The notes below the pieces were generated by a model. It had not been told where the DNA came from. It worked only from the letters and a program-made list of their open reading frames with translations, and did no database searches. The position numbers and the translations under genes were made by a program. This document shows, in pieces, positions 6,688-41,437 of a DNA stretch of 64,000 bases. Origin of the DNA: an uncultured bacterium (GTDB lineage: Bacteria > Babelota > Babeliae > Babelales > Vermiphilaceae); NCBI GenBank assembly GCA_963707655.1, contig OY970172.1, positions 736,001 to 800,000 on the forward strand. The letters are read 5' to 3'. The number at the start of each line of letters is the position of its first letter. Position 1 is the first letter of the stretch.

Positions 6688-8941
6688 ATGAAAAAATTAT
6701 TAATTGTAGAGTCACCCGCCAAAATTAAAACGATTACCAAGTTCTTGGGAAAAGATTTCAAGATCATGTCCACTATGGGCCATGTCAAGGATCTTCCTAC
6801 CAAAGAGCTGGGGGTGACCATTAATAAATCTATAAATATTGATTATGTTCCCATTAAGAACAAAGAGAAAACTATTGCGGAAATCTGCAAAGCTGCTTCA
6901 ACTTCTGATGAAATCTATTTAGCGCCCGATCCTGACCGTGAGGGTGAAATTATTGCCTGGCACATTGAGCAGGAAATACAAAAAGTCGTTAAAAATAAGG
7001 CAAAAATTCATCGCATCACCTTTAACGAAATTACCAAACCGGCCATGCTTGAAGCAATTGATCACCCGGGAGATGTTGATCTTGATAAAGTTGCCGCTCA
7101 ACAAGCACGCCGCGTGCTTGATCGCTGGGTGGGCTATGAAGTATCCCCTATTTTATGGAAAAAATTAGCTCCGGGCCTTTCTGCCGGGCGCGTGCAATCT
7201 GTTGCTCTCCGCCTGATTGCCGATCGTGAAGAAGCTATTCGCGCCTTTAAGCCAGAAGAATATTGGACCGTTGTCGGCCAATTTTTACATGGTAAAGATT
7301 CTATTGAAGCAGAACTGACTGAAATAGGCAAAAATAAAGCTGAAATCAAAAATCAACAGCAAGCTGATGAGCTGGTTGAAAACATCCAAAAAGAAAGCTA
7401 TGTTATTGATTCGATTATTGATAAAGCAACGCACCAAAAATCCACTGCCTCCATTTATGACCAGTACTTTGCAGCAGGCAGCATTTAATCGCTTGGGCTT
7501 CAGTGTTAAAAAAACCATGCAAGTTGCCCAACAATTATATGAAGGTATGCCGCTAGAAGACGAAGCACTCCCGTTGCGTTAATTACCTATATGCGTACCG
7601 ATTCGTTCCGCCTTTCTGATACGGCGTTAAAACAAGCGCGCGATTTTATTGGCAAAAATTTTGATAAAGAATATTTGCCCAAAGAGCACAACGTTTATGA
7701 AAAAGCAAAAGGAAAAGGCAAAGCAGCTGCAGCGCAAGATGCTCACGAAGCGGTGCGTCCGATTAATGTGAACATCACTCCTGAGAAAGCACATAAATAT
7801 CTACCCAAAGATGTTGCAAAGCTTTATGAACTTATTTGGAAGCGCTTTGTTGCCTGCCAAATGAAGCCAGCATTATATGCACAGCGCCAAGTGGTTATTA
7901 AAGGGGGAGAATTTACCTTTAAAGTCACCGGTTCAACCCTCATATTTGATGGATTCTTGAAAGTGTACGCCGCGGACGAAGATGAAAAAGAAGACAAAGA
8001 ATTATTCCTCAAGGGCTTAAAGCTAAAGAAAAAGTTAATCTTAAAAAAGTGATGCCAAAGCAGCATTTTACTCAACCGCCACCACGATATACTGAAGCTT
8101 CATTGGTCAAAGAGATGGAAAAAGAGGGCATTGGCCGACCAAGTACCTATGCCACTATCATGAACACTATTCAGGCGCGCCACTATACCGCTCTTGATAC
8201 AAAAAAAGATTTACTCCGACTGAACTGGGAATGACGGTAACCAAAATTTTGGTTGAAAATTTACCAAAGATTATGGATCTCAAGTTCACGGCACATATGG
8301 AAGAAGATCTTGATAAAATTGCTCAAGGTGATCTTGATCGAGATACGTTATTGCGCGGGTTTTATGAAGCGTTCCAGCAAGATGTAAAAGAATTCAAAGG
8401 CAAAGATGGTAAAAAAGTTGCCGAACCGACCGACATTACCTGTCCAGAATGTGAAAAACCCAATCTGGTGATTCGATTTGGAAAAGCAGGAGAATTTTTG
8501 GGTTGCCCAGATTATCCTGATTGCGCGTTTACTACCAATTTTAAACGTGATGAAAAAGGGGATATTGAAATTGTAAAAACTGAGGGCCCTAAACTGCTCG
8601 ATGAAAAATGTCCAAAATGCGGCAAACATCTGCGCCAGGTTATTGGTAAGTTTGGTCCCTTCGTTGCCTGTTCAGGGTATCCTGACTGCAAATATATTAA
8701 GCAAAAAAAGGCGGAAGTTCCCTGCTTATCATGTGGCGGCTCATTGGTTGAACGTCGTTGGCGCGGCGGTACTTTCTGGGGATGTTCAAACTATCCAAAA
8801 TGTAAGTTCGCCGTATTTGGTGATATTGAAGAAACCCCATGTCCGCAGTGTTCGCGCGCTTACATGGCAAAGAAAGTTGATAAACAAGGAAACGCAACCC
8901 TGCTTTGCACCGATAAAAAATGTGGGTACAAAAGTAGTTAA
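6688..8941 (+). CDS. topA: DNA topoisomerase I with C-terminal Zn-ribbons, split by four apparent single-base indels
   Basis: [30 protein letters not shown] (active Tyr), [18 protein letters not shown] and repeated CPxC motifs run across ORFs 6688, 7367, 7591, 8049 and 8231. Confidence 0.93.
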
Positions 8942-11550: not shown

Positions 11551-12141
11551 CTAAAATGCATAACCCAAGCTTGCGCCAAATGCAAATCCACCTATTTGCA
11601 TCCTGCCATTGCTGAATACATTTGCCATCTTTGGACAGACTCTTTTCTTTTCATACGAATATTCGCCGAAAATGCCGAGTGAGAAACAATCGGCGAGCAA
11701 CACATTAAAACCGGTATTGGCAAATAAGCCGATACCACTGCCTTTGATTACGCAGTCAACATACGGTGAATTGTTGTGTTGATGAAAGTGGAAGTAGCGT
11801 GGCCCTATTGCAAAGAAATAGTAAAAGCGTTCACAGAAATTTACTATGGGCCTTAAACCAATATCAACCGGTACTACAGCCAAGCTTGTTTTTTCGCAGG
11901 AGTTCAATGCATGGCCCCGTGCGTGGCGATAGCCGATGCTGCCATAAAGATCAAGATAATCACATAAAGGGAGCGATACACTCCCTTGAATTTCAAAGCC
12001 ACCATGATTGTAGATGTTCTTAAGCGGAGATGCAGAAAAGAAAAAGTAGCTTGGCTTTATTTCGAGCAACGGTGTCACATCGGACGCATACTGTGTCAAT
12101 GCGCACAGCAGCAGAGAAAGTCGGGCGATTTTTTTATACAT
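11551..12141 (-). CDS. Small outer-membrane beta-barrel (probably 8-stranded, OmpA/OmpW-like)
   Basis: Signal peptide, alternating hydrophobic and aromatic strands, C-terminal SLGYAF beta-signal; AAGGA RBS 7 nt before ATG 12141. Confidence 0.75.
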   Translation of the reverse strand: MYKKIARLSLLLCALTQYASDVTPLLEIKPSYFFFSASPLKNIYNHGGFEIQGSVSLPLCDYLDLYGSIGYRHARGHALNSCEKTSLAVVPVDIGLRPIVNFCERFYYFFAIGPRYFHFHQHNNSPYVDCVIKGSGIGLFANTGFNVLLADCFSLGIFGEYSYEKKRVCPKMANVFSNGRMQIGGFAFGASLGYAF

Positions 12142-12158
12142 ACTCATATCCTTTATTT

Positions 12159-14693
12159 TCACGGAACGGTGACGGTAACCGGTGCACTCATATTGCCATT
12201 GGCATCAAACGCAACTAACGAATATACTACCACAACGCCCGGTACCTGATTATGATCTTGGTACACGGACGTAGCGGCGCTTACCGTAGCGATTTGTAAG
12301 CCATCACGATACATAAGATAACCGGTCACTCCGGCTGATGAACTCGATGTCCATGTCAGCTGATTATAGAGTTCATATTCAAATCCAAAATTATTTTTCT
12401 TTTGCATACCCTGAAGATTTGATGGGGGTAAAATAGTTGGTGCAAAACCCAAGAAATCAAATTGCACAAACGTAGGGTTGCCGATCGGTAGATAAGAGAG
12501 CGAATAATTCGGAGTTGTTCCCGTAAAGGTTACGGAATCAAAGGTGCCGGTAATGGCAGAGGAAGTGAGAATGGTGTATGTTCCCGGAATGGCACTTGGA
12601 TCTAGGTCGATTTCCAAGGTGCCTGCTAAGGATGCAGGTCCGGTAACAGCGACTAAAGATGTGCCGCCGGAATCGATTTCGATATGGACAAGGCTTCCGA
12701 GGGTGCCCGTAACTGGATCTGCTGAATTGAGGGTCAAACTGCCAAGAGTGAGTGTTCCTCCCGCTATCTGGAGAGATCGTTCCGGAATTGACAAAGACAT
12801 TTCCGGTCAATGTCCCGGTCCCGCTCAACGTACCTCTTTGCGCGCTAAAGCCAATGTTTCTACAGACAAAAATCGATGCTGAATCGATTGATCCATTCAC
12901 TTTGAAATTCGCATTGTTGATCGTAATGTTCCCTTGATAATCAGTTGTTCCATTGTAAACAACAGTTCCATTTCCTTTGACAAAGACATTTGTTCCTCCT
13001 GCGCCGAAACTGGTGTCATCAATAAACGCGACTTGGTCTCCGAGTGTCAAAAGATCATTAGCATCGTTCGCCATGAATGTGAGAGAAGAACCTGCGCGCA
13101 GGAAAATACTATTTCCCAATGCTGATCCATCGGAGCCATCTGAACCACCACCGGAGACCGCCAGTTCCATGAGTTCCTGCTTGTGTTGTATTATTTGACT
13201 GTATTGAACGTGGTTGGAATCCCCGGAGAGTGCTTGTAGGGTGAAATTCAAACCGCTATCCACAAAGATAGCGCCTCCCAGACCGCTTCCGCCGCCACCA
13301 CCTCCGCCGCCAAAGCCTGATCCAACGGTAGCTGGCCCCAACTCCTCCAGATCCTCCACCCAGATTTCCTATATCAGTTCCACCTGAGGCAGTGGAGCCA
13401 TTAGAGGGTCCACCGCCTGCACCGCCACCGCCGCCAAGAGAATTACCACCTTCTGCAGGCGTAATACCAGATTGGTTGACTCCTCCGCCACCGCCCCCTC
13501 CGCCAACTCCTCCCGATCCACCTTGTACCGTATAAGCATATATCAGAAGCACCCGGTGCCAGCGCCACCGCCACCGCCCCCGCCATAGCCACCACTCCCA
13601 GCTTGTCCGTCAAATTCATTGCTAGAACCAGTTATGACGACTCCGCCGCCTCCGCCTCCTCCCCCATCTCCTCCATTGCCTCCGGAAGGCATAATGCACT
13701 ACCTCCTGGTGGTATAGATGCCTTGAGGCTGAGATCCATTCGATCCGGCGCTTCCACCACCGCCGCCGCCCGCATTACCGCCTCCGCTATCATCTCCACC
13801 GCCGCCGCCGCCCGCATTATTTCCTCCACTATTACCTCCTCCACCAGAACCAGCGGTAATTGAGAGACCATAACCATTTCCATCCTGTCCGCCATCTTGA
13901 TCCGAGCCTCCATTCCCCAGATTCGTGAGCGTTCCTATAGTGGCGCGAGATCCTAGGCCTCCGCCTCCGCCACCGCCGCCTCCACCGACTGTCGTCTGTC
14001 GAAAGAGTGACATCTCCACCATCTCCACCAAAACCCCTCCTCCAGCGCCTCCGGTGCTTCCGGTGGTTGTAATAGAACCTCCATTTCCGCTAAAGCCGCC
14101 GCCACCGCCACCCCCTCATTGCCTGTAAAGAGACCTAAATAACTTCCTCCATTTCCACCAACAGCAGAGCAATCGTTGATCGATACATTCATCAAGGTAA
14201 TTGAAGGATTTGAACCATTTAAAAAGGATTGAGGTGCGTAAATGGCCCCTCCGGCACCCATGCCACCGCCGCCGCCTGAAATTCCGTCTCCGCCATTGCC
14301 TCCTTTTGCGGTCAGGTTTTGAAAGATCATGTTTTGGATCGTCACATTCCCCATTGGGATAAAAAATCCGCTGTAAGCGCCGCTGTTACCGTCAATAGTG
14401 ACGGTAGGAGTAGAGCCTGGGTTGCCAATGGTGATATTCACAGGATTTGAGGAATTGTTAATAATCGGCAGAATTCCATTGAGTTGAATAGTCATCGGAG
14501 AGGCAAAAACAATCGCATAATCATCGGGTGTTGTGTTTAAACCTTGATTCATTGTATTCAAGCAATATCTCAGATCACCCACCTCTCCAATGCCACCCGG
14601 ATTATTATCTGAGCTTATTGTTACATTGAGCGTTGTTAAGGCACACAAAGAATGTGAAGTGAAAAGAAAAATCAAATATTTGAATTTGAACAT
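12159..14693 (-). CDS. Gly-rich autotransporter-passenger-like adhesin with a C-terminal FN3-like domain; multiple frameshifts (errors or pseudogene)
   Basis: Fragments in several frames join into: signal peptide, beta-helix (NVTIQN, GGAIY/GGAIF), poly-Gly tracts, a passenger-associated repeat (GNGTVVYNGTTDYQGNITIN), GTLSGTG, and an FN3-like end (PPSNL...LTW...GYLMYRDG...YSLVAFD). Confidence 0.7.
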
Positions 14694-14767: not shown

Positions 14768-15642
14768 TCAATGCTTAAAATTTGGAAGAGAGGAAAATTC
14801 GTTTTTTTGAGGAATGTAGTTAGGTCTCATAGCGAATGCAATCGTTGCATAGCGAATTTTGCCACTTTGTGCGACAATGTGAGGAGTTGGGTAGATGGAA
14901 AATTCTGTGAGAAGCGCTCCGGGAATGAGTAAGATAGAATTTTGATCCTAACCGCGAGAAAACTTTCTGAGAGGAGAAGAAAAATCATCGACGGTGAATG
15001 ATGATTTATACGGAGAAAGAAGAAGTGATTCGTTGTCTGTGCTATCAAGAAACAGAGAAAACGCAGTTCCATCGTAATGAGGCCTTGATGGCACTGTAAG
15101 AGGGAAGATATTTGATTACCTTGAAAAGAATAGGGGGCTGTCCGTATTGAGAAGAAAAAATCGTTTCCAAACCTAACTCAGCTGCCGCCTCATCAAATAG
15201 ATCTCCGTATGGCTTTTGAATCTCAGAACAAGCTTCAAAAAAACGGATGATTTCAGGAACTGCGTTTAAATTCTGGGTAGTGAGAGCAAATAAATTCATG
15301 GAAATGGGTCGAATAATAGAAGGAGATCTGGCTTCTTCCTTCTCTTTCTGATTCGTCGTAGAAACCAAAAAAATCAGTGGAGTAGTAATTTCTATCTTTT
15401 GAGCGAATAAAACGTTCTTTTGCGCTATATAATTTTTGTGCCCAAACGGGATTTGTTTGAAGAAATTCGATGAGCTCATCAAAATATGCATAGAGAGAAT
15501 CAAACGTTGCCGTTCCATGATTCTTATCGCAAATTTCGACATACCCTGCTTGCTTGAATTGCTCTGCCAGAGGCATTGCACAAAGAGATTGAAATGCAAA
15601 CAGGAGAAAAATATAGAGGAACAAAGTCTTTCGAATAATCAT
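14768..15642 (-). pseudogene. Secreted 2OG-Fe(II) oxygenase, disrupted by two frameshifts and an in-frame TAG at 14948-14950
   Basis: Manual joining gives a signal peptide followed by KVIKY...PHYDG...IPGALL...PTPHIV...RYATIAF, i.e. the HxD...H...R signature. Confidence 0.65.
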
Positions 15643-24869: not shown

Positions 24870-27419
24870 TCAAAATTTCCAACGAAATTCAACTTCTGCG
24901 CCAATATCGCGATGCTCATCACGAAATCCACGCACGGTGATCTCATCAGAAACAGCATACTCAGCTTCAAAACGAATATCTTCTGACAGACTAAAATTTT
25001 TCTGTATAAGAGCGTGCCAACGCTCGCCAATATCAATTTCTATGGCGCCGCGCAACCCTGCTCTGCCCGTCTGATCGCTAAAGCTGGGAATAAAGTGTAC
25101 GTGTTTAAAGGGAGAAAAAAGTTGATCAATAGCCGCATGCAGTTTTGAATCGCTATGCTCACTATCAAAAATGATATGCTTTACCGCATGCATAAGCGCA
25201 CTTGATAAAGCGCCGCCCAAAGAATCTTCTGAGCCACCAAGCAAGAGTGAAACAATTTGTTCGTGCGTAAGGGGTGGTGATGATTCAAGCAGTATTGTTG
25301 GCTGCTGCAGCAAGCCGCTGAGTGACATGGTAATGTTATATTTTTTAATTTTGTTCTTTGCTACAAACTCAATATAAGGATTACTGCCGCTGTCCGGCAA
25401 AAAATTCACCACCCCTTTGGTGATAAAAAGCGGTCGATATGGCAATGCTATGCTACCGGAAAGAATAGACATGCTGCCGCTCATTACCGGCTCTTTGACG
25501 GAGCCGGTGATAATGAGTCGAGTCTTTATATTAGTATCCAGCAGTGGCGTTCTCACCCGAATGGCTTCTTTGGTTTCAATGACTAAATCAATATCTGCAT
25601 CAAAGAGCGGTAATGATGTTTTTGTTTGAGAAAAAAGTTGTTTTTGAAATGCAGGTGAAAAAATATTTTCTTTAAATTGTGAACGATCAAAAAAGATATG
25701 CCCTTTCAAAGACGGACTCGCACCTTCACGCTTTTCACATACCACTGAGCCAGAGAGTATAGTAAATAAATCTTTTTTAAAATGAAGCAATACTGAATCA
25801 AAGACCAAAGGAGCATAGACAAACGTAGGCGCAAAGTTATCCTCGGCAAAGTGACACTGTAAATTTTTGCAAACAATCTCACCCCGATGTAATGTGGCGC
25901 GTAGATCAGTGCCGGTTATTTTTCTTTTGGCGCAATCAATAATAAATGATCCGCGCAGATCACTCATGCAATTGTACGTTTGCGGCAAACGAATTACCGC
26001 CGATTCTAAAGATATAGTGCTGGTAATTTTATTATCAGCATACTGTCCTTGCACACGCATGGTGCCATCGCCTTGTATATCAAGCTGGACACACTGTTTA
26101 ATCAGCCCTCGGATAAAAACAATCGGCATTTTTAAAGTGAATGTGGAGTTTTCTCCCGCTATGTGCGCCAGGGTGGTTTTTTTATTTTCACCATCGGTGA
26201 ATTCAACAGATGCGTCGAGCGTCATGCTGTTCCAATCAGAAACGGTGCATTGCAAAGAGCAGCTGTTTTCAGGAACAGTAAGCTCTACAAAAGGAGCTGT
26301 CAGCGGCGTGACATTATTAAGCGCAAGACAAATTGTGCGATCAGTGCTGTTAACCGCATAAGCTCCCGCAACATTCCCTTGGTCGGAACGTATGACCACA
26401 GAGCCGCTGAGCTCTTGCATGTTTCCCGCAAAAGTTATTTTCGCATCAGTGGTGCAAGGCAAAGCGGCATGGCAAATGTTATTGCACGCAAGAGAACCTT
26501 CTACCTTAAAACCATTATTAAGTTGCCCTTTTGCTTCCAGCTGACACAAGCCTGAAGCTTGATCTGCTCCCAAGAGCGGGCCGCACACAGATGATAATGA
26601 TGCAGTGCCAGCTACTTGGAACAGCCACGTATCATTGCTTTTAGTGAGCGTAATGTTATCAAGCGAGAGTGATTTATCAGCAATCGCCGCGGTACATGCT
26701 AATGCGTTATCTGCATAAGAAGCTGCAAGAGAACATTGTTGAGCGCTGAGTAAGGGCGATACATACACAAGCTCCGCTTGAGCCTTTAGCGGCTCATTTT
26801 CAGTACAATTGCAACTAAAACGACCGGCGCATTCTGTTAGCAAATGAGAGCCGTTGTTCGATGCTGCCGCATGATGCAATTGCATTCTTGCATCCAAGTT
26901 TTTTCCTCGCCGCTCAATAACGCAGCCCCACGAGCAGGAAAATTCTCTTTTGTTTGCATGGTCATGCATCGCAAATGAACCGTCTTGCACTTTTACGCAA
27001 TTGAGCGCTATAGCAACCGGCAACGGTGCATCTTCTATCATTTTTTGTATGTGTTCTTCGATGGCAAATGTACCATCTGAAAAGCCAGAATGAGCTAATA
27101 AGTTCTCCACTTCAATATCAAGCGCAATCGTTTTATGTGCGAGCAATTGCCACCAAGAAATATGCAGTATGAATTTTTTGCAATGCCACTGCCAATCACT
27201 GTTTTTATCATGCGGCATCATGCGCATGTTTTCAATAGAAATCGTGGGAGATATCAAGCTAAATGTGTGCAATCTTCCTGAAACCGAGCAGCCCAGCGCC
27301 TGCGCAAAAGAATTATTAATTTTGTTCTCGAGCCACGTGTGCAACCATGGCTCATTAAGAAAAAGAGTAAAAGCAGTCAGCGCGCCAATAGCTAAAGAGA
27401 GAATAATTTTTTTAATCAT
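24870..27419 (-). CDS. tamB: Translocation/assembly module TamB-like protein
   Basis: N-terminal anchor, beta-rich body, C-terminal TamB-type motifs (ITGSVKEP, LESSPPLTHEQIVSLLLGG, EVEFRWKF). Confidence 0.75.
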   Translation of the reverse strand: MIKKIILSLAIGALTAFTLFLNEPWLHTWLENKINNSFAQALGCSVSGRLHTFSLISPTISIENMRMMPHDKNSDWQWHCKKFILHISWWQLLAHKTIALDIEVENLLAHSGFSDGTFAIEEHIQKMIEDAPLPVAIALNCVKVQDGSFAMHDHANKREFSCSWGCVIERRGKNLDARMQLHHAAASNNGSHLLTECAGRFSCNCTENEPLKAQAELVYVSPLLSAQQCSLAASYADNALACTAAIADKSLSLDNITLTKSNDTWLFQVAGTASLSSVCGPLLGADQASGLCQLEAKGQLNNGFKVEGSLACNNICHAALPCTTDAKITFAGNMQELSGSVVIRSDQGNVAGAYAVNSTDRTICLALNNVTPLTAPFVELTVPENSCSLQCTVSDWNSMTLDASVEFTDGENKKTTLAHIAGENSTFTLKMPIVFIRGLIKQCVQLDIQGDGTMRVQGQYADNKITSTISLESAVIRLPQTYNCMSDLRGSFIIDCAKRKITGTDLRATLHRGEIVCKNLQCHFAEDNFAPTFVYAPLVFDSVLLHFKKDLFTILSGSVVCEKREGASPSLKGHIFFDRSQFKENIFSPAFQKQLFSQTKTSLPLFDADIDLVIETKEAIRVRTPLLDTNIKTRLIITGSVKEPVMSGSMSILSGSIALPYRPLFITKGVVNFLPDSGSNPYIEFVAKNKIKKYNITMSLSGLLQQPTILLESSPPLTHEQIVSLLLGGSEDSLGGALSSALMHAVKHIIFDSEHSDSKLHAAIDQLFSPFKHVHFIPSFSDQTGRAGLRGAIEIDIGERWHALIQKNFSLSEDIRFEAEYAVSDEITVRGFRDEHRDIGAEVEFRWKF

Positions 27420-27438
27420 AAAAATAATCGGGTACCAA

Positions 27439-27933
27439 TCAGATTACGTGCCAGGAACCATCATAACGATATTTGCGTAAAAAAGAAATGTGCCCCACCC
27501 CGCTGGTAAGGGCATAGAGCGATTTTTTATTAACATCAACCAAGTAGACGGTGCCCGCCTGTATAGTGCCGTCGGCATAAAAAATAATGTGATCATTTTC
27601 AAAAGATAGCTGCTTGCCGATCGGCGCATGGGGTGATGATGGGGGTCCCTGAACTCCCGGTATAAAACCGTAACAAACTCTGCTGTTGAGCTGTTGTGTC
27701 CCGTCATCATAAGCGTATGATTTTCTACCGACATCAAAGCGCAAAACCTGCTTAGTTTGACTGCTCAATGCCTTCTGCTGTAAATACATGCACACGGTAT
27801 ACAGTTTTTCTATATCGGCCCGCACCATGAGCCCGTAAAATGAGCGGAGATTGCACAGCCCCAGGCCCGCTATCAAGGTAATGAGCGCAAGTACCACCAA
27901 TGCCTCGATAAGAGAAAAACCCTTATTTTTCAT
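27439..27933 (-). CDS. Type II secretion / type IV pilus (pseudo)pilin, GspH/FimT-like
   Basis: Prepilin cleavage motif KG|FSLIEALVVLALI. Confidence 0.85.
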   Translation of the reverse strand: MKNKGFSLIEALVVLALITLIAGLGLCNLRSFYGLMVRADIEKLYTVCMYLQQKALSSQTKQVLRFDVGRKSYAYDDGTQQLNSRVCYGFIPGVQGPPSSPHAPIGKQLSFENDHIIFYADGTIQAGTVYLVDVNKKSLYALTSGVGHISFLRKYRYDGSWHVI

Positions 27934-28042
27934 ATCTTCTTCTTTTTAATTTTTAAGATACAAAAGAGGCGGCTGGTTTGTATAGAATCGGTTTTTGAGT
28001 GCGATAGAGGAGAACAGATATAGCTATTACGTTATTAATCTC

Positions 28043-28447
28043 TCAGAGCCTGTTGTTATTATTGCCGTAGGGATTGCGGAACTTGAGGAACATTACCTGC
28101 GCTTCCGGCCTTACGCCGAGCACTATATCACCCTGCCTCACCATTTGATTGTGGCGCTCAATAATGTGACGCTGCCAGTCAATAACTTCTTCTCTGTGAA
28201 TAATAGTTTTTTGCTGCAAGGCAATAGTTTGTTTCAAATTGGCGATTCTTTGGTGAACCGTTCTAATCCATATTGCGCCCAAGACTCCGCCCAAGGCCAC
28301 CAAATATATCCCTGTAGCCAATGGAACATATTTTTTGAACCATTCAGATTTGCTCGCTGTTTGTTCACCGCCATGCAATCCAGTCAGCGGTGTGAATAAA
28401 ATCGCAAGCGCCAGCGTTATTTTTATACTATTAGCTCTTATTTCCAT
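28043..28447 (-). CDS. Hypothetical secreted membrane-anchored coiled-coil protein
   Basis: GAGG RBS, signal peptide, one TM helix, coiled coil. Confidence 0.65.
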   Translation of the reverse strand: MEIRANSIKITLALAILFTPLTGLHGGEQTASKSEWFKKYVPLATGIYLVALGGVLGAIWIRTVHQRIANLKQTIALQQKTIIHREEVIDWQRHIIERHNQMVRQGDIVLGVRPEAQVMFLKFRNPYGNNNNRL

Positions 28448-28661
28448 AGTAACCTCGTTTCTTTATCTTATGGCAGCAGAACGTGCATAATTGCCATAAT
28501 AATTTTCTGATATTTCTATTATGCATCATAATAGAAATATTTCAAACAGAAAAATCGCATAAAAAGGACAGTTTAGCGCTTAAAAAATCTGAACATTTGG
28601 CACTGCCTCCCGGCTACCTGCGTGAATGGATGTCTATTGGCGCATATCTTAAAACAGCCGC

Positions 28662-30373
28662 TTACTCTGCCAAATCTTGCTCAATAGTGGCAACAGCAAG
28701 AACTTCATCTATCGTGGTTAATCCCTGCTTGATTTTACGCAAACCGTCCTGCACCAAGAGAATCATGCCATCGGCAACTGCCTGGCGACGCAAACGAGCA
28801 GTATCGGCGCGCTCGATAGTCAGTTTGGCGATCTCACTGGTCATGCTCATTAATTCAAATATTGCAATGCGCCCCTTGTATCCCGTGTTTAAGCAGACTT
28901 CGCAGCCAACAGGAGCATAGAAAGTGATATCTTTTGCTTCTTGCGCAGTTAGCCCTATGCTCTCCAAAATTTCTTTAGAAGGTTGATATGGTTTTTTGCA
29001 GGCTTCACACAATTTGCGCACCAAGCGCTGTGCCATTGCCAAGTGTATTGAAGAAGCAATCAAAATGGCTCAACTCCCATATCAATAAGACGCGTAATGG
29101 TTGCCGGCGCACTATTGGTATGCAACGTACTGAGCACCAAGTGTCCGGTAAGCGCTGATTGAATAGCAATCTGAGCAGTTTCTGCATCACGCGTTTCACC
29201 GATCATGATAATATCAGGATCTTGACGCAAAATAGAACGCAATGCTGCAGCAAAGGTGAGCCCTATTTTTTCTTTAACCTGCACTTGACCAATACCGGGC
29301 ATCTGATACTCAACCGGATCTTCAACAGTAATAATATTTACTTCAGGAGTATTCAATTCACTCAAAATAGAATAGAGGGTAGTCGTTTTACCCGATCCGG
29401 TTGGACCGGTGATATAAATAATACCGTTGGGTTTTTGAATATTTTCTTCAAGTACTTTATAATCGCGCTGCGCTAAAATCCAGATCTTTAAGTTTTGCAA
29501 AGCTGCGTGTTTTATCAAGAAGACGCATAACCACCCGCTCACCAAACACTACCGGTAAAATAGAAACACGAATATCAATCGCCTTTCCGGCAACTTTAAG
29601 ATCGATTCTGCCCATCTTGCGGAATACGCTTTTCTGCAATATTTAAGATTGGCCATAATTTTAATACGAGAAATTAATGCACCTTGAATCCGTTTTGGTG
29701 GCGTCATGACAGGATACAAAACCCCATCAATACGATAGCGGACACTCAATTCTTTTTCAAAAGGCTCAATATGAATATCAGAAGCCCCTCGTTTTGCCGC
29801 CTGAAACAGAATATGGTTCACCAATTTAATGATGGGCGCTTCAGTTGCCATGGCCATAATATCTTTTTCTTCTATCTGGCTGAATTCAACATCTTTGAGC
29901 TCTTTGTCTTCCTCTTCTTCAAGCTCGGCAATAACCTGGCCGGCCCCCTGAATAGGATAATAGCGATTAATTGCTTCGGTAATTACCGGCTCGCTGGCAA
30001 CCATGTAGCGTGCCGAGCCGCCAAGCAAAACATTTAATTCATCAAGCGGTTGAAACTTAATAGGGTTGGCCGTGGCAATCACGAGCTTGCCGTCAATCAT
30101 GAGAGGCATTACTACGTTATCGCGCAAAAATTTAAGCGGCACTTTGGCAAGAAGAGTGAGATCTGCCATTCCATCAGTAATTTTATCTAAGTAGCCAAGA
30201 GATGCAAAATGCGCATATGCCTGGGCCAACTGAGCAGAAGTAAGCGCTTTTTTTTCAACCAAATACGCTTCAACACTCGCCGCGCCCGATGCAACGGCCT
30301 GCTCGGCTTCTTGTAATTGAGCAGGAGTAATTATGTTTTCATCAATAAGGAGTTGGCCGATAGTCTTTTTCAT
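28662..30373 (-). CDS. gspE: T2SS/T4P assembly ATPase (GspE/PilB), split by about four apparent indels
   Basis: MshEN-like N-terminus (IGQLLI), ASDIHIEP, Walker [39 protein letters not shown], Zn-binding CxxC pairs, GYKGR. Confidence 0.9.
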
Positions 30374-34762: not shown

Positions 34763-36328
34763 ATGAATAAACGCATTGCATTGATGCTGCTGGTAGCAGC
34801 CAGTTCTGCATCGCATAAAATGCTGGCGATGAGTCAGTGTTTTAACCCTGAAGGAAATCTTGAGGTAAAAGCCTTAAGCAAATCATTTTTCTCGGTGCGC
34901 CCTCCTTTTCAATTAAACTCTCCTGAATTTTTAGCAGGCTGGTGGTATGACCGCCTTGATGCAAAAGGCAAAGAATGCCGCAACGGCACGCTGCAGCTTG
35001 TTGGCCTTGGTGGAAAATCAACCGATGCCTACAACTTGGCTCGCTATTTTACCTTTAATAACAGTTCAGTGCTGCACATTGTGGAACAATCGGGCATCCC
35101 TGCCACTGATATTTTATCTGAACAAGTGGATATTTACAGCGTAGACGGCACTTTTGAAAGCTTTCTTGCTTTAAAGCCCCGCTATAGTTTTGGCGGATTG
35201 GGCATTTCTTACCGTCAAGAATTTGCGCAACGCAGTGATGGCCGCGCCTTCTGGTTCTTGGCATCCGCACCAATAATCAATATTAAAACCGGCATGCATT
35301 TAGAAGAAACCATTATTAATGATGGTGGCGGTGTAAATCCGGCGGTTCCCGGCGCCGTGCCAAATGCGGTAGAAGCGTTTTCACAAACAGCTTTTGATTT
35401 TGGCAAAATTTTGTGCGAAAACAAAACCAAAACCGGGTTGGGTGACCTTACCTTGCTCCTTGGTTACAAAACAATAGCTCATGAAGATTATAGCATGAAT
35501 GGCTACATTGGTATGATCGCGCCAACGGGCAGCCGTGTAAAATCAAAAGAGATGTTTGAAGCGGTAGTTGGTAACAATCACCACTTTGGCGCCTTGCTTG
35601 GCAGCTCTGCCAGTGTTTCTCTCTGGGAATGTGAAAATGGCTCCTGCCTTGATTTTGAATTTAGCGCTCACGGTCAATTTCTCTTTAAAAGACATGAAGT
35701 GCGTTCTTTTGATTTGAAAAACAAACCATGGAGCCGCTACATGCAAATGTACGCGAACGTAGCCGCTGCAGAAGCAGCTTTTGCTGCCGACGATCTTTAT
35801 TCAAATACAACACCGGGGATCAACATTCTAACCCAACCGGTACAAGTGTATCCCGGTTTTTCAAGCACCAGCAATACGGCAGTGGTCTTTACCTCATGCG
35901 ATGGCAACAAACAATTTGAATTGGGCTACAACTTTTACGCCCGCCAATCAGAGTATGTTGAGCTTGCCTGCCCGTGGCAAGTGGGTCCGGCGCTTAAATC
36001 ATTACTTGGTTTAGGTGGCGCAACCGACAGCGTGCAACAAATAGGCAATAACTATGGCGGCAACAACGTAGTTAATCCCGATGGTGCTCCTGCCGTGTTC
36101 TCAGTTGCTGACTATAACAGCACGCAAATACAGGTAACCGATCTTGATCTGCTTTCTGCTACCCATCCGGCAATCATCAGCAATACGGTGTATGCAAATG
36201 TAACCTACCGTTGCGATGCACATGAATATCCACGATTCATCGCCTTGGGTGGCTCTTATGAATTTGAAGAGGACAACACTACGTTGAACCGTTGGACCAT
36301 ATGGTTAAAAGGTGGCATTTCATTTTAA
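34763..36328 (+). CDS. Large putative outer-membrane beta-barrel, paralog A
   Basis: Signal peptide, amphipathic strands, C-terminal WLKGGISF; shares motifs with 39599..41437. Confidence 0.75.
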   Translation: MNKRIALMLLVAASSASHKMLAMSQCFNPEGNLEVKALSKSFFSVRPPFQLNSPEFLAGWWYDRLDAKGKECRNGTLQLVGLGGKSTDAYNLARYFTFNNSSVLHIVEQSGIPATDILSEQVDIYSVDGTFESFLALKPRYSFGGLGISYRQEFAQRSDGRAFWFLASAPIINIKTGMHLEETIINDGGGVNPAVPGAVPNAVEAFSQTAFDFGKILCENKTKTGLGDLTLLLGYKTIAHEDYSMNGYIGMIAPTGSRVKSKEMFEAVVGNNHHFGALLGSSASVSLWECENGSCLDFEFSAHGQFLFKRHEVRSFDLKNKPWSRYMQMYANVAAAEAAFAADDLYSNTTPGINILTQPVQVYPGFSSTSNTAVVFTSCDGNKQFELGYNFYARQSEYVELACPWQVGPALKSLLGLGGATDSVQQIGNNYGGNNVVNPDGAPAVFSVADYNSTQIQVTDLDLLSATHPAIISNTVYANVTYRCDAHEYPRFIALGGSYEFEEDNTTLNRWTIWLKGGISF

Positions 36329-39504: not shown

Positions 39505-39598
39505 GGCTATATTTTTTTACGCGGTAGTTGTCATCCGTTGAGCGCGGATGTATTATCTAAAAATCAGTCTTGATGATAGTATAGCAAAAAAAGGAATA

Positions 39599-41437
39599 AT
39601 GGTGATGCGCATTTTTCGTGATATTATTTTTTTCATATTTTTTCTGCATTCTTTTGCTTATGCGGAGCAAAACTCAACTCCTTTCTTTAATGCCCGATCT
39701 CAAAATGAAGATTCTACTCGCTGGCTGGTTGGTTGGACCCATCAAGTTAACCGTCCATGCGCACAACAAAAATATTACACGCTTGCCATAACGCCAGCTT
39801 ATAGCCAAACCTTTAAGTCTCTTGATTTGGCCCAATCTCTTTTTGGCAGTGACTTGATTGAGCCAGGTTTTGATACCCCATATATTACCATTTCCGGCAG
39901 CGCGGTTAATGGCCGATACGCGGTAAATCAATGGCTGGCCGATTATTTTGGCCTACCGCCCGATTTTCAAAGTAATGTATTTTTTAAGCCGAGTATAAAA
40001 AACTCTATGCTCGATTTTAATCTGTATGTCGGCTTTTCTGACTGGGCAGAGGGTGCGTATATTAATATTTTTGGTCCCTTGGTGTATACACGCTGGGATC
40101 TGGGCATGTCTGAAATAATAATTAGTCCCGGCAGCCTCGGTTATGCACCCGGATATTTTAATGAAACGGGCGTGCCACGCGCAAACCTGCTTAATAGTTT
40201 TACACAGTTCATTGCTGAAGAAAAAGCACCGGTTATAGATGATGTCACCACCTTTATGCCATTGCGCTCTTCTAAAATGGCCAATCGCGCACTTCACAAA
40301 ATAGGATTTGCTGATTTACAAGTAGTTGCCGGCTACAACTTTATTCAAGATGAAGATTATCATATCGGCGGCAATCTGCGCCTGGTAATTCCGACCGGTA
40401 CGCGCCCTAAAGGTAAATTTTTATTTGAACCGATCGTTGGCAATGGTCATTTTTTTGAAGCGGGACTTGGTTTTTCTACTCATGGTATTATTTGGGCCGA
40501 TGTTGATCGCACACAAGAAATTGCCTTTTATCTTGAGGTATGGGTGACTCATCTTTTTTCCACGCTGCAACGGCGGGCATTTGATCTCAAGCTTGGGGAT
40601 AACAGCCGCTACATGCTCGCGCTTGGTATGACCGATCTTATCAGTGGTGGATTGTCAGACGAATCGGGGAAAGCTCCAAACTTTCAATATGATGAAGCGT
40701 TTAATCCCGTTGCCAATTTAACTACTATGCCCGCATGGGTCTCTGTTCCGTGGCAAGCGGATATTACGCTGCTTTTTAATTTTACTCATCACAATCTTGA
40801 AGCTGATTGTGGTTTTAACTACTGGGTGCGTCAACCGGAACAGATAAAAACAATTAAATATGGCTGTGCCAATCCGGTTACCGTGCAATCATGGGCGTTA
40901 AAAGGAGATGCACAAATGTTTGGCTTTACTACCGGCACTCATGACCCCGTTGCGCTTTCTGCCACTGAAAGCAATGCGACCATTCACGAAGGAGGAAATG
41001 TACTTATGAGCAATAGCAGCACCGCGGGCCAGGTTAATAATAATCTTGGCATCGATAATCCTGTGCCCGCTTATGCAGCCGGCATTGAATTATTAAATAG
41101 TAACTTTGATGCACCAATTAATACTTCTTTCCAGCCGGTATTGCTTGCCAACAAAAGCATTGCCCATTGCCGCTCAAGCACACAGGGGCTTTCGTATGCG
41201 GCCTTTATAAATCTTAACTATGTTTGGAACAATGAAAGCTGTTGGTACACCCCATATTTGGGTGGCGGTTGCAAAATTGAAATAGCTCCTGATGGGCCAA
41301 ATAACACATGCCCAAGCGTCTGCACGGCAAATTCCATACCAAATTCTCTATGCGGTTTTTGTGATGAAGACATTCGCCTTCAAGTGAATGCCTCGCAATG
41401 GACAGTGTGGCTTAAAGGTGGCGTTCGCTTTAATTAA
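39599..41437 (+). CDS. Large putative outer-membrane beta-barrel, paralog B
   Basis: Signal peptide, C-terminal WLKGGVRFN, motifs shared with paralog A; start codon uncertain. Confidence 0.75.
   Translation: MVMRIFRDIIFFIFFLHSFAYAEQNSTPFFNARSQNEDSTRWLVGWTHQVNRPCAQQKYYTLAITPAYSQTFKSLDLAQSLFGSDLIEPGFDTPYITISGSAVNGRYAVNQWLADYFGLPPDFQSNVFFKPSIKNSMLDFNLYVGFSDWAEGAYINIFGPLVYTRWDLGMSEIIISPGSLGYAPGYFNETGVPRANLLNSFTQFIAEEKAPVIDDVTTFMPLRSSKMANRALHKIGFADLQVVAGYNFIQDEDYHIGGNLRLVIPTGTRPKGKFLFEPIVGNGHFFEAGLGFSTHGIIWADVDRTQEIAFYLEVWVTHLFSTLQRRAFDLKLGDNSRYMLALGMTDLISGGLSDESGKAPNFQYDEAFNPVANLTTMPAWVSVPWQADITLLFNFTHHNLEADCGFNYWVRQPEQIKTIKYGCANPVTVQSWALKGDAQMFGFTTGTHDPVALSATESNATIHEGGNVLMSNSSTAGQVNNNLGIDNPVPAYAAGIELLNSNFDAPINTSFQPVLLANKSIAHCRSSTQGLSYAAFINLNYVWNNESCWYTPYLGGGCKIEIAPDGPNNTCPSVCTANSIPNSLCGFCDEDIRLQVNASQWTVWLKGGVRFN

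Follow-up and report, generated by a model that had tools for sequence, protein, structure and literature searches.

Few routes are known by which Gram-negative bacteria retain secreted proteins other than lipoproteins at the cell surface, namely a covalent autotransporter barrel, a lipid anchor, linkage to lipopolysaccharide (LPS) and, in Bacteroidota, PorP/SprF. In the present study, we examined a 64,000-nucleotide stretch (hereafter the window; positions 736001-800000 of contig OY970172.1, our G000:C1) of the single-contig genome of an uncultured bacterium of the Babelota (1.09 Mb, 88.6% complete). It contains two neighbouring genes on the minus strand, one for a Gly-rich autotransporter-type passenger ending in an FN3 domain (the cargo and its tail) and one for a small predicted outer-membrane barrel, the named close relatives of which are labelled Babeliaceae, Babeliales or Dependentiae. 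Our preferred reading, which we consider reasonably probable, is that they form a recurring cargo-barrel pair, in which a hairpin of the FN3 tail clips to the outer loops of the barrel and serves as a non-covalent surface anchor after the cargo has been exported by another machine, probably that of type II secretion (T2SS).

The closest described arrangement is the type B CTD (C-terminal domain; TIGR04131) of type IX secretion (T9SS) with its PorP/SprF partner. In the available text of PMC9143113 and PMC12618676, the gene immediately downstream is usually that of the cognate barrel, one barrel is shared among orphan cargos, and the cargo is bound by the barrel for anchoring at the surface; the same part of PMC12618676 describes T9SS as exclusive to Bacteroidota. 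The present locus resembles this arrangement in its likely Sec signal and in a C-terminal tag domain on varied adhesin-like cargos, and the same working logic is apparent, with 35 of 57 tail genes paired and orphan cargos in genomes that have a barrel elsewhere. It differs in that the tail is a 93-aa FN3 domain with a hairpin and the barrel is an 8-stranded protein of 196 aa. The T9SS CTD models (TIGR04183, TIGR04131; NCBIfam, E 0.01) matched neither the tail (P0002), nor an intact orthologue of the cargo (P0272), nor the paralogues, and the barrel (P0001) gave no Pfam or NCBIfam match to the PorP/SprF family. A genome search for SprA and PorP (PF14349, PF11751) was blank, with control genomes equally silent. 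In its working logic, the pair appears to follow T9SS type B cargos and their PorP/SprF partners, to which no homology of its own parts was detected.

Type V secretion provides the other frame of comparison (classes Va, Vb and Vf as defined in the available parts of PMC9289746 and PMC13721041). As in type Va, the same passenger occurs fused to a PF03797 barrel; unlike type Va, the chain here runs through FN3 to a stop with no 12-stranded barrel in it, and the barrel is a separate 8-stranded protein. PF03797 is present in P0324, the intact orthologue P0272 has no Pfam match, and no PF03797 match was found in the genome at its 88.6% completeness. As in type Vb (TpsA/TpsB), passenger and barrel are encoded by separate neighbouring genes; TpsB is described as 16-stranded with two POTRA domains in the available part of PMC9289746, whereas the present barrel is modelled with 8 strands and lacks POTRA, and recognition involves an element at the C-terminus of the cargo. 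The two-partner secretion (TPS) domain gave no Pfam or NCBIfam match on the N-terminal cargo fragment or the intact orthologue, and the genome search for TpsB was blank, its controls being equally silent. The Hop adhesins of type Vf (BabA, SabA, HopQ) also place a large extracellular domain on an 8-stranded barrel; the Hop domain is, however, covalent in loop 1, while two proteins with exchangeable cargos are involved here, and a longer form of the barrel was not found, which is weak evidence. With the OmpW/OprG/AlkL, NspA and OmpA-type barrels, the likeness is one of fold only, at 8-15% identity. The passenger also lacks the lipobox cysteine after the signal peptide that defines surface lipoproteins of the type XI secretion system (T11SS) or T2SS lipoprotein route, and the lipobox pattern occurred in 0 of 92 full-length passenger homologues. 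The pair fits no type V class, as a preliminary description of the window had held for type Va (which carries its own 12-strand barrel) and TpsB (a much larger partner with POTRA); every family test failed on a defining feature.

Folds and predicted complex of the tail and the barrel

The two folds proposed in the preliminary description were borne out by the models. The ~90-aa FN3/Ig-like C-terminal domain measures 93 aa and is predicted to form a 7-strand beta-sandwich superimposable on FN3 (pLDDT 96.8; best Foldseek match 2w1n, TM 0.82, rmsd 1.4 Å). Strands A and B are drawn out in the model to a long hairpin, an addition to the FN3 fold. The best 150 generic FN3 matches mostly align only from about position 27 of the tail profile onward, and the hairpin therefore marks the tail family; a tail-profile search over 1.84 billion representatives was dominated by generic FN3 repeats and yields no family size. 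N16, F18 and N26 are conserved in 46, 45 and 49 of 51 tails, respectively.

The ~196-aa signal-peptide barrel ending in YAF is modelled as a signal helix followed by 8 antiparallel strands with long outer loops and a C-terminal aromatic residue (pLDDT 91.4), as expected of an OmpW/OmpA-like fold. It superimposes on OmpW 2f1v (TM 0.75, rmsd 2.5 Å, 9% identity) and reaches a Z of 18.1 to NspA and OmpW, with OmpA, OmpX, NspA and OmpW all matched at 8-15% identity. P0001 gave no Pfam or NCBIfam match, one homologue fell below the cut-off on PF13505, and the similarity to OprG and AlkL was weak (E 0.005-0.015). Among 51 barrels, T85 is found in 49, N123 in 44 and S125 in 48. The barrel is a distinct family despite its ordinary OmpW/OmpA fold, and is mostly tied to tagged cargos.

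A complex of tail and barrel was predicted with a score of 0.81 (best control, 0.00), contact agreement between runs of at least 98% and partner pLDDT of at least 90; the modelling of this complex, which had been proposed in the preliminary description, thus passed its controls. The mark applied was reached by 116 of 157 solved complexes and by 2 of 215 mismatched pairs, counts that are only rough with our own alignments. Approximately 70 contacts with low expected error were predicted, between residues 14-25 and 63-67 of the tail and residues 39-43, 78-85, 121-132 and 166-181 of the barrel. The latter constitute the four long loops opposite the termini and include the conserved T85, N123 and S125. 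In the standard topology of 8-stranded barrels, the N- and C-termini are periplasmic and the long loops face outside. The prediction supports binding between tail and barrel and does not show it.

The barrel gene begins 17 nt after the stop of the cargo gene, as previously noted, and the two genes are likely one operon; no terminator-like match was found in the spacer, and a promoter and terminator scan remained at or below shuffle level.

Linkage of tail and barrel and exchange of tails

Of 151 genomes of the phylum Dependentiae, 34 gave a match to the tail profile and 41 to that of the barrel. After 11 weak partial rows had been dropped and 4 internal repeats merged, 72 tail rows resolved into 57 genes in 33 genomes, 31 of which also have a barrel. 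A barrel gene lies directly downstream of 35 of the 57, on the same strand and within 200 nt, against ~0.1 expected by chance according to our own estimate (~2 barrel genes per ~1000 genes). As the preliminary description had predicted, the domain sits on varied cargos, with the barrel family downstream in these 35 genes; cargo types with the FN3 tail comprise the Gly-rich passenger, a beta-helix (PF13229), YVTN propellers, a TIG+PKD+propeller architecture, BNR and CarboxypepD_reg repeats. The genome under study holds three barrels and five tagged cargos in total. Besides the pair in the window, an 885-aa beta-helix protein with a second tail is directly followed by a barrel paralogue (1026551-1029979), and a YVTN propeller with a third tail has no adjoining barrel (671971-673320). 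The third barrel lies behind an ankyrin and DUF5122 propeller protein ending in a different short tail, and one more short-tail propeller is present with no adjoining barrel.

Viewed from the barrel, 35 of 70 loci lie behind an FN3 tail, 15 behind a cargo with a short W-containing tail and 4 behind another secreted family; 3 precede a cargo with the FN3 tail and 1 is transcribed divergently from such a cargo. At the remaining 12, including 2 uninspected loci and 2 fragments, no cargo was recognised. Both cargo-cargo-barrel and barrel-cargo-cargo layouts were observed. The preliminary description had considered that the barrel may be an ordinary OmpW/OmpA-family protein occurring independently; this is true of its fold and of the 12 loci with no recognised cargo, and does not extend to a family that is distinct and found mostly beside tagged cargos. 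A sister subfamily of barrels lies behind propellers with a short acidic-x-M/A-W-L tail at 15 of 17 loci, and this tail is a candidate for a second docking tag. Directly ahead of a barrel in 4 genomes free of FN3 tails (L045-L048) lies a secreted family of ~470 aa, unmatched in Pfam and NCBIfam, which possibly carries a third.

The distribution of the pair is patchy (34 of 151 genomes, in several families) and extends into Chlamydiae, a second group of intracellular bacteria; two adjacent barrels were named from Chlamydiales, and one barrel cluster includes the amoeba-grown Candidatus Rubidus massiliensis. A scan of named genomes, with thin coverage outside Dependentiae, yielded no more than 2 loci: a true pair, and a second at which the FN3 match was spurious. 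The plasmids searched contained no barrel match, and an atlas search gave only generic PF13505 and FN3 clusters. We also observed ten proteins of 330-610 aa with partial FN3-like tails (G055 contigs C4, C11, C24-C26 and C31; L053), one of which was scanned and found to be a DUF5122 propeller.

Tail and barrel have diverged together. Their distances correlated at 0.83 over 51 adjacent pairs (0 of 2000 permutations, with kin not independent) and at 0.67 among 16 cargos other than the Gly-rich type, and one propeller bears both the tail and the barrel subtype of the Gly-rich clade. The full hairpin is kept in 50 of 50 barrel-paired tails by alignment count, and is shortened or has lost its aromatic residue in 5 of 27 unpaired tails. 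Among these five are the tails of G021 and G036, the two tail-bearing genomes in which no barrel was found (96% and 97% complete), both with a shortened hairpin. In tandem-FN3 proteins of the tail family, the hairpin motif is confined to the last copy in 7 of the 8 proteins inspected; P0129, the G027 protein, was counted once, P0242 is the exception, and P0173 (generic FN3) and P0241 (another hairpin pattern) were left out.

A search with residues 470-760 of an intact passenger returned 551 proteins; the best 120 of these comprise 84 with the FN3 tail at their end, 12 with a PF03797 barrel there and 24 with some other ending. The change of tail falls at the same strand-plus-proline junction across the homologues, which in the present cargo corresponds to the last strand of the C-terminal passenger stretch and the Pro-rich linker. 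The 12 PF03797-bearing forms, which include Rhabdochlamydiaceae, are 74-81% identical over the searched region, and passenger status is based on this identity to the matching region of PF03797 autotransporters. FN3-tail forms were named from Babeliales, Rhabdochlamydia, Parachlamydiales and Chlamydiales. As for the hallmarks attributed to the passenger in the preliminary description, a signal peptide-like start and GGAI (two occurrences in the cargo fragments) are present, and the labels passenger-associated repeat (PATR), autochaperone and beta-helix found no significant Pfam, NCBIfam or PDB match, nor did Pmp, which we also considered.

Of 80 metagenome loci selected by the passenger alone, 33 have the FN3 tail, and the small barrel is the next gene in 25 of them; it comes next in 0 of the 16 loci with an autotransporter barrel and in 0 of the 31 with other endings. 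As a control, the gene upstream of the passenger precedes it in 31 of 40 loci with full flanks, whether the tail is FN3, autotransporter or helical. This gene keeps to the passenger, while the small barrel keeps to the tail.

Other tails occupy the same position. Ten of the 31 other loci (L066, L078, L083, L084, L086, L096, L097, L101, L114 and L130) carry an Ig-like tail of 89 aa that is unrelated to the FN3 tail. A PF13505 barrel of ~245 aa, likewise unrelated, is the next gene in 7 of them and stands one gene further on in 1; of the rest, 1 shows no barrel and 1 is cut by the contig end. One carrier is named Gammaproteobacteria, and homology between the FN3 pair and this pair was undetected (hhalign probabilities of 0.9% and 1.7%, with shallow alignments). 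To judge from sequence, the Ig-like tail and its ~245-aa barrel appear to be a convergent pair. Four loci end the passenger in a hydrophobic helix and a basic tail, which presumably resembles exosortase-type sorting signals, although NCBIfam gave no such match. Passengers ending in a short helix with a K-Y motif and no barrel next were also observed (L071, L082, L090; P0282, P0300, P0330), and this helix may be a peptide signal for sorting. In L056, L058, L060-L062 and L123, the passenger ends in a basic helical tail of ~90 aa that matches no family and has no barrel behind it, and in P0312 and P0366 the passenger is fused to PF01588 tRNA-binding domains, which is odd for a secreted protein. 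With different tails swapped at the same junction, what follows the passenger behaves like a localisation cassette that can be exchanged.

Proposed mechanism and competing explanations

According to the preferred reading of a non-covalent anchor, cargo and barrel would both pass through Sec and the barrel would be inserted by BAM (the machinery for beta-barrel assembly), following established Sec/BAM biology; two Omp85 genes occur in the genome. A folded domain is too wide to pass an 8-stranded barrel. The folded cargo would cross the outer membrane through a secretin, which is the weakest step, and a T2SS-like cluster with two secretins lies at 881539-889978 of the genome. In TM6 genomes, T2SS parts and two gspD genes have been reported (PMC4776705, in the part available). 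Barrel loops L1-L4 are then predicted to capture hairpin residues 14-25 and loop 63-67 of the tail, orphan cargos may share a barrel whose gene lies elsewhere in the genome, and the passenger or propeller on display would serve adhesion to a protist host. The preliminary description had proposed that the tail is a sorting or anchoring signal with the barrel as its dedicated partner; the partnership is supported, and between the two functions the evidence favours anchoring.

Several observations weigh against this reading. The barrel is not directly downstream of 22 of the 57 tail genes, and 22 unpaired tails retain an intact hairpin, one of them paired with a barrel cut by a contig end. The ten partial FN3-like tails of G055 were left uncounted, and the two inspected have no adjacent barrel; L089, a frameshifted FN3 tail with no barrel, was counted among the other metagenome loci, and its inclusion gives 25 of 34. 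Neighbours in this region co-travel without partnership, as the upstream gene illustrates in its 31 of 40 loci, and because it also travels with the passenger, linkage and tree congruence partly reflect co-inheritance. The controls for the complex were unrelated proteins rather than generic FN3 domains or non-cognate barrels. Secretins are present in 150 of 151 genomes and therefore do not single out the export route. Binding is itself predicted, and localisation and export are presumed.

A split autotransporter, in which the barrel, together with BAM or the translocation and assembly module (TAM), exports the cargo in trans and then holds it as a self-sufficient secretion system, is in our view unlikely. 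The pair does replace the type Va barrel on the same passenger, two Omp85 genes are present in the genome, a TamB-like gene (by eye) lies in the window (24870-27419), and type Vf adhesins, as described in the available part of PMC9289746, are 8-stranded barrels with the passenger in loop 1. However, the predicted contact requires a folded FN3 domain on the outer loops, propeller cargos are folded, orphan cargos have no neighbouring barrel, and no fused intermediate was found, the last point being weak. The same passenger also has tails with no adjoining barrel gene, such as the hydrophobic helix with its basic tail, and therefore exits by a route other than a neighbouring barrel in those lineages. 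The barrel may instead act as a transient shuttle or folding partner that receives the cargo from the secretin, to let it go afterwards or pass it on to vesicles or a host membrane. PorP/SprF-type partners are described as shuttles that set the final location (PMC12618676, in the part available), and one barrel can serve several tandem or orphan cargos; we nevertheless give this little credence, as the ~70 contacts predicted at low expected error speak for a complex that is stable and the interchange with a covalent autotransporter anchor points to retention.

That the two genes are a co-transferred mobile pair without binding, the barrel being an ordinary OmpW-like channel or adhesin, is suggested by the patchy distribution across families and into Chlamydiae, by the weak similarity to OprG and AlkL and by the upstream gene, an instance of plain co-transfer at this very locus. 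Against this, the barrel follows the tail rather than the passenger (0 of 47 non-FN3 loci), pairing persists on unrelated cargos, the hairpin is degraded in the absence of a barrel as well as in internal repeat copies, and the complex passes its controls, all of which render this explanation very improbable. A periplasmic envelope scaffold, with the cargo bound to the barrel from inside, would suit an organism of this kind, since the outer membrane of Babeliales is reported as degenerate with part of LPS synthesis lost, a partial loss of the LPS pathway being likewise reported for Dependentiae (PMC4776705, in the part available), and extra scaffolding would be useful; export of the cargo is, besides, a presumption. 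It is the least credible of the alternatives, as the predicted interface is on the long loops opposite the periplasmic termini and relatives have the passenger fused to an autotransporter barrel.

A bolder extension of the non-covalent anchor is possible, if doubtful, namely that dedicated 8-stranded barrels are general and repeatedly invented surface docks, each with its own C-terminal tag (FN3 hairpin, W-tail or Ig-like tail), and, in its boldest form, that barrel and BAM export the cargo in trans, so that two genes would make up a minimal system for secretion and display beyond the types known so far.

Assembly, neighbouring genes and implications

The assembly is indel-rich, and core genes are also split by frameshifts, among them topA (6688-8941) and a GspE-like ATPase gene (28662-30373), both named by eye. 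The cargo gene is broken across frames by ~12 indels, mostly within the Gly-rich region; single open reading frame (ORF) orthologues of 840-862 aa are intact in nine genomes (G085, G040, G089, G114, G026, G013, G059, G014 and G125). Aligned with the G085 orthologue, the gene showed 0 internal stops in 836 codons and substitution rates of 0.09, 0.09 and 0.34 by codon position, and the identical indel set was seen against 5 usable orthologues of the 7 compared (the other 2 alignments slipped at the start site), with 1 stop in one comparison. Short-read contigs of relatives do not contain several of the extra bases of the window in this gene; among the listed short-read contigs identical to the window, with 38 pieces outside that list, none spans a break in it. 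Because there are no internal stops in 836 codons and the third-position bias is strong, the indels probably reflect assembly error rather than decay in this strain. A pseudogene reading is disfavoured on these grounds, as well as by the recurring indels and the split core genes.

The cargo-barrel junction (12103-12371) is covered by a short-read contig with 0 differences and 0 gaps, possibly from the source sample and so not independent. A sequencing artefact at the junction is thereby excluded, given also that two separate ORFs are present at 35 loci from genomes and 25 from metagenomes. The same observations reject a single fused ORF, which the preliminary description had raised, and no fused cargo-barrel form was found with the barrel profile among proteins of 388-2000 aa (7999 candidates; weak evidence).

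Features of the locus and related loci (window coordinates unless prefixed otherwise)
Feature	Position	Strand	Basis
Small predicted outer-membrane barrel of 196 aa (P0001) with signal peptide, 8 strands, C-terminal Phe and long loops L1-L4; ATG at 12141, stop at 11551-11553	11551..12141	-	Fold model
Spacer (17 nt), AAAGGA ribosome-binding-like site	12142..12158	-	Sequence
Cargo gene: Gly-rich autotransporter-type passenger with C-terminal FN3 tail, ~845 aa when intact; ATG at 14693, stop at 12159-12161	12159..14693	-	Orthologues
Putative FN3 anchor domain (P0002, 93 aa)	12162..12440	-	Fold model, structure match
Extended A-B beta-hairpin (FN3 residues 14-25), predicted barrel-docking element; conserved N16, F18, N26	12366..12401	-	Model, conservation
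C-terminal passenger stretch common to classical autotransporters	12453..13278	-	Homologue comparison
Gly-rich repeat region of passenger, limits approximate	13279..14300	-	Holds most indels
Putative Sec signal peptide (18 aa): basic N-terminus, hydrophobic core, no lipobox	14640..14693	-	Read from sequence
Upstream gene, two frameshifts here, linked to the locus but outside the anchor pair	14768..15642	-	Sequence, neighbourhood counts
Short-W-tail propeller loci	G000:C1:321612-323962, 27411-28535; L046-L048, L050, L051, L141, L143-L149, L151		

The upstream gene encodes a protein of ~290 aa with a signal peptide and invariant H-x-D...H...R residues, a pattern that we take to be that of 2-oxoglutarate/Fe(II) oxygenases; it gave no Pfam or PDB match, and intact copies occur at L037:3971-4897 and L038:134-1045. 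Its product may modify the Gly-rich passenger. In L073 and L117, the leader sequence of the passenger is copied in the N-terminus of the upstream gene, which suggests recombination between the two genes. Elsewhere in the window, two related signal-peptide proteins of 520-630 aa with an aromatic C-terminal residue were noted by eye (34763-36328 and 39548-41437), and are probably larger outer-membrane barrels with big insertions. The TamB-like gene (849 aa) stands beside a pilin-like gene and the GspE-like gene (24870-27933, by eye).

Literature searches, with most subscription papers and all supplements outside them, found no description of the FN3-tail/barrel pair and no report of an OmpW/OmpA-type barrel as a dedicated dock for the C-terminally tagged proteins of the cell itself. 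The pair is likely an undescribed way to hold proteins on the cell surface. If this is true, it adds a retention route built from two of the commonest 'hypothetical' folds and assigns a function to a class of small orphan barrels. The alternative tails of the passenger amount to a natural experiment that exposes several other candidate sorting signals, and a 93-aa tag with a 177-aa barrel would make a compact display tool. The finding also names candidate adhesins of Dependentiae, a host-dependent phylum the surface biology of which is barely known.

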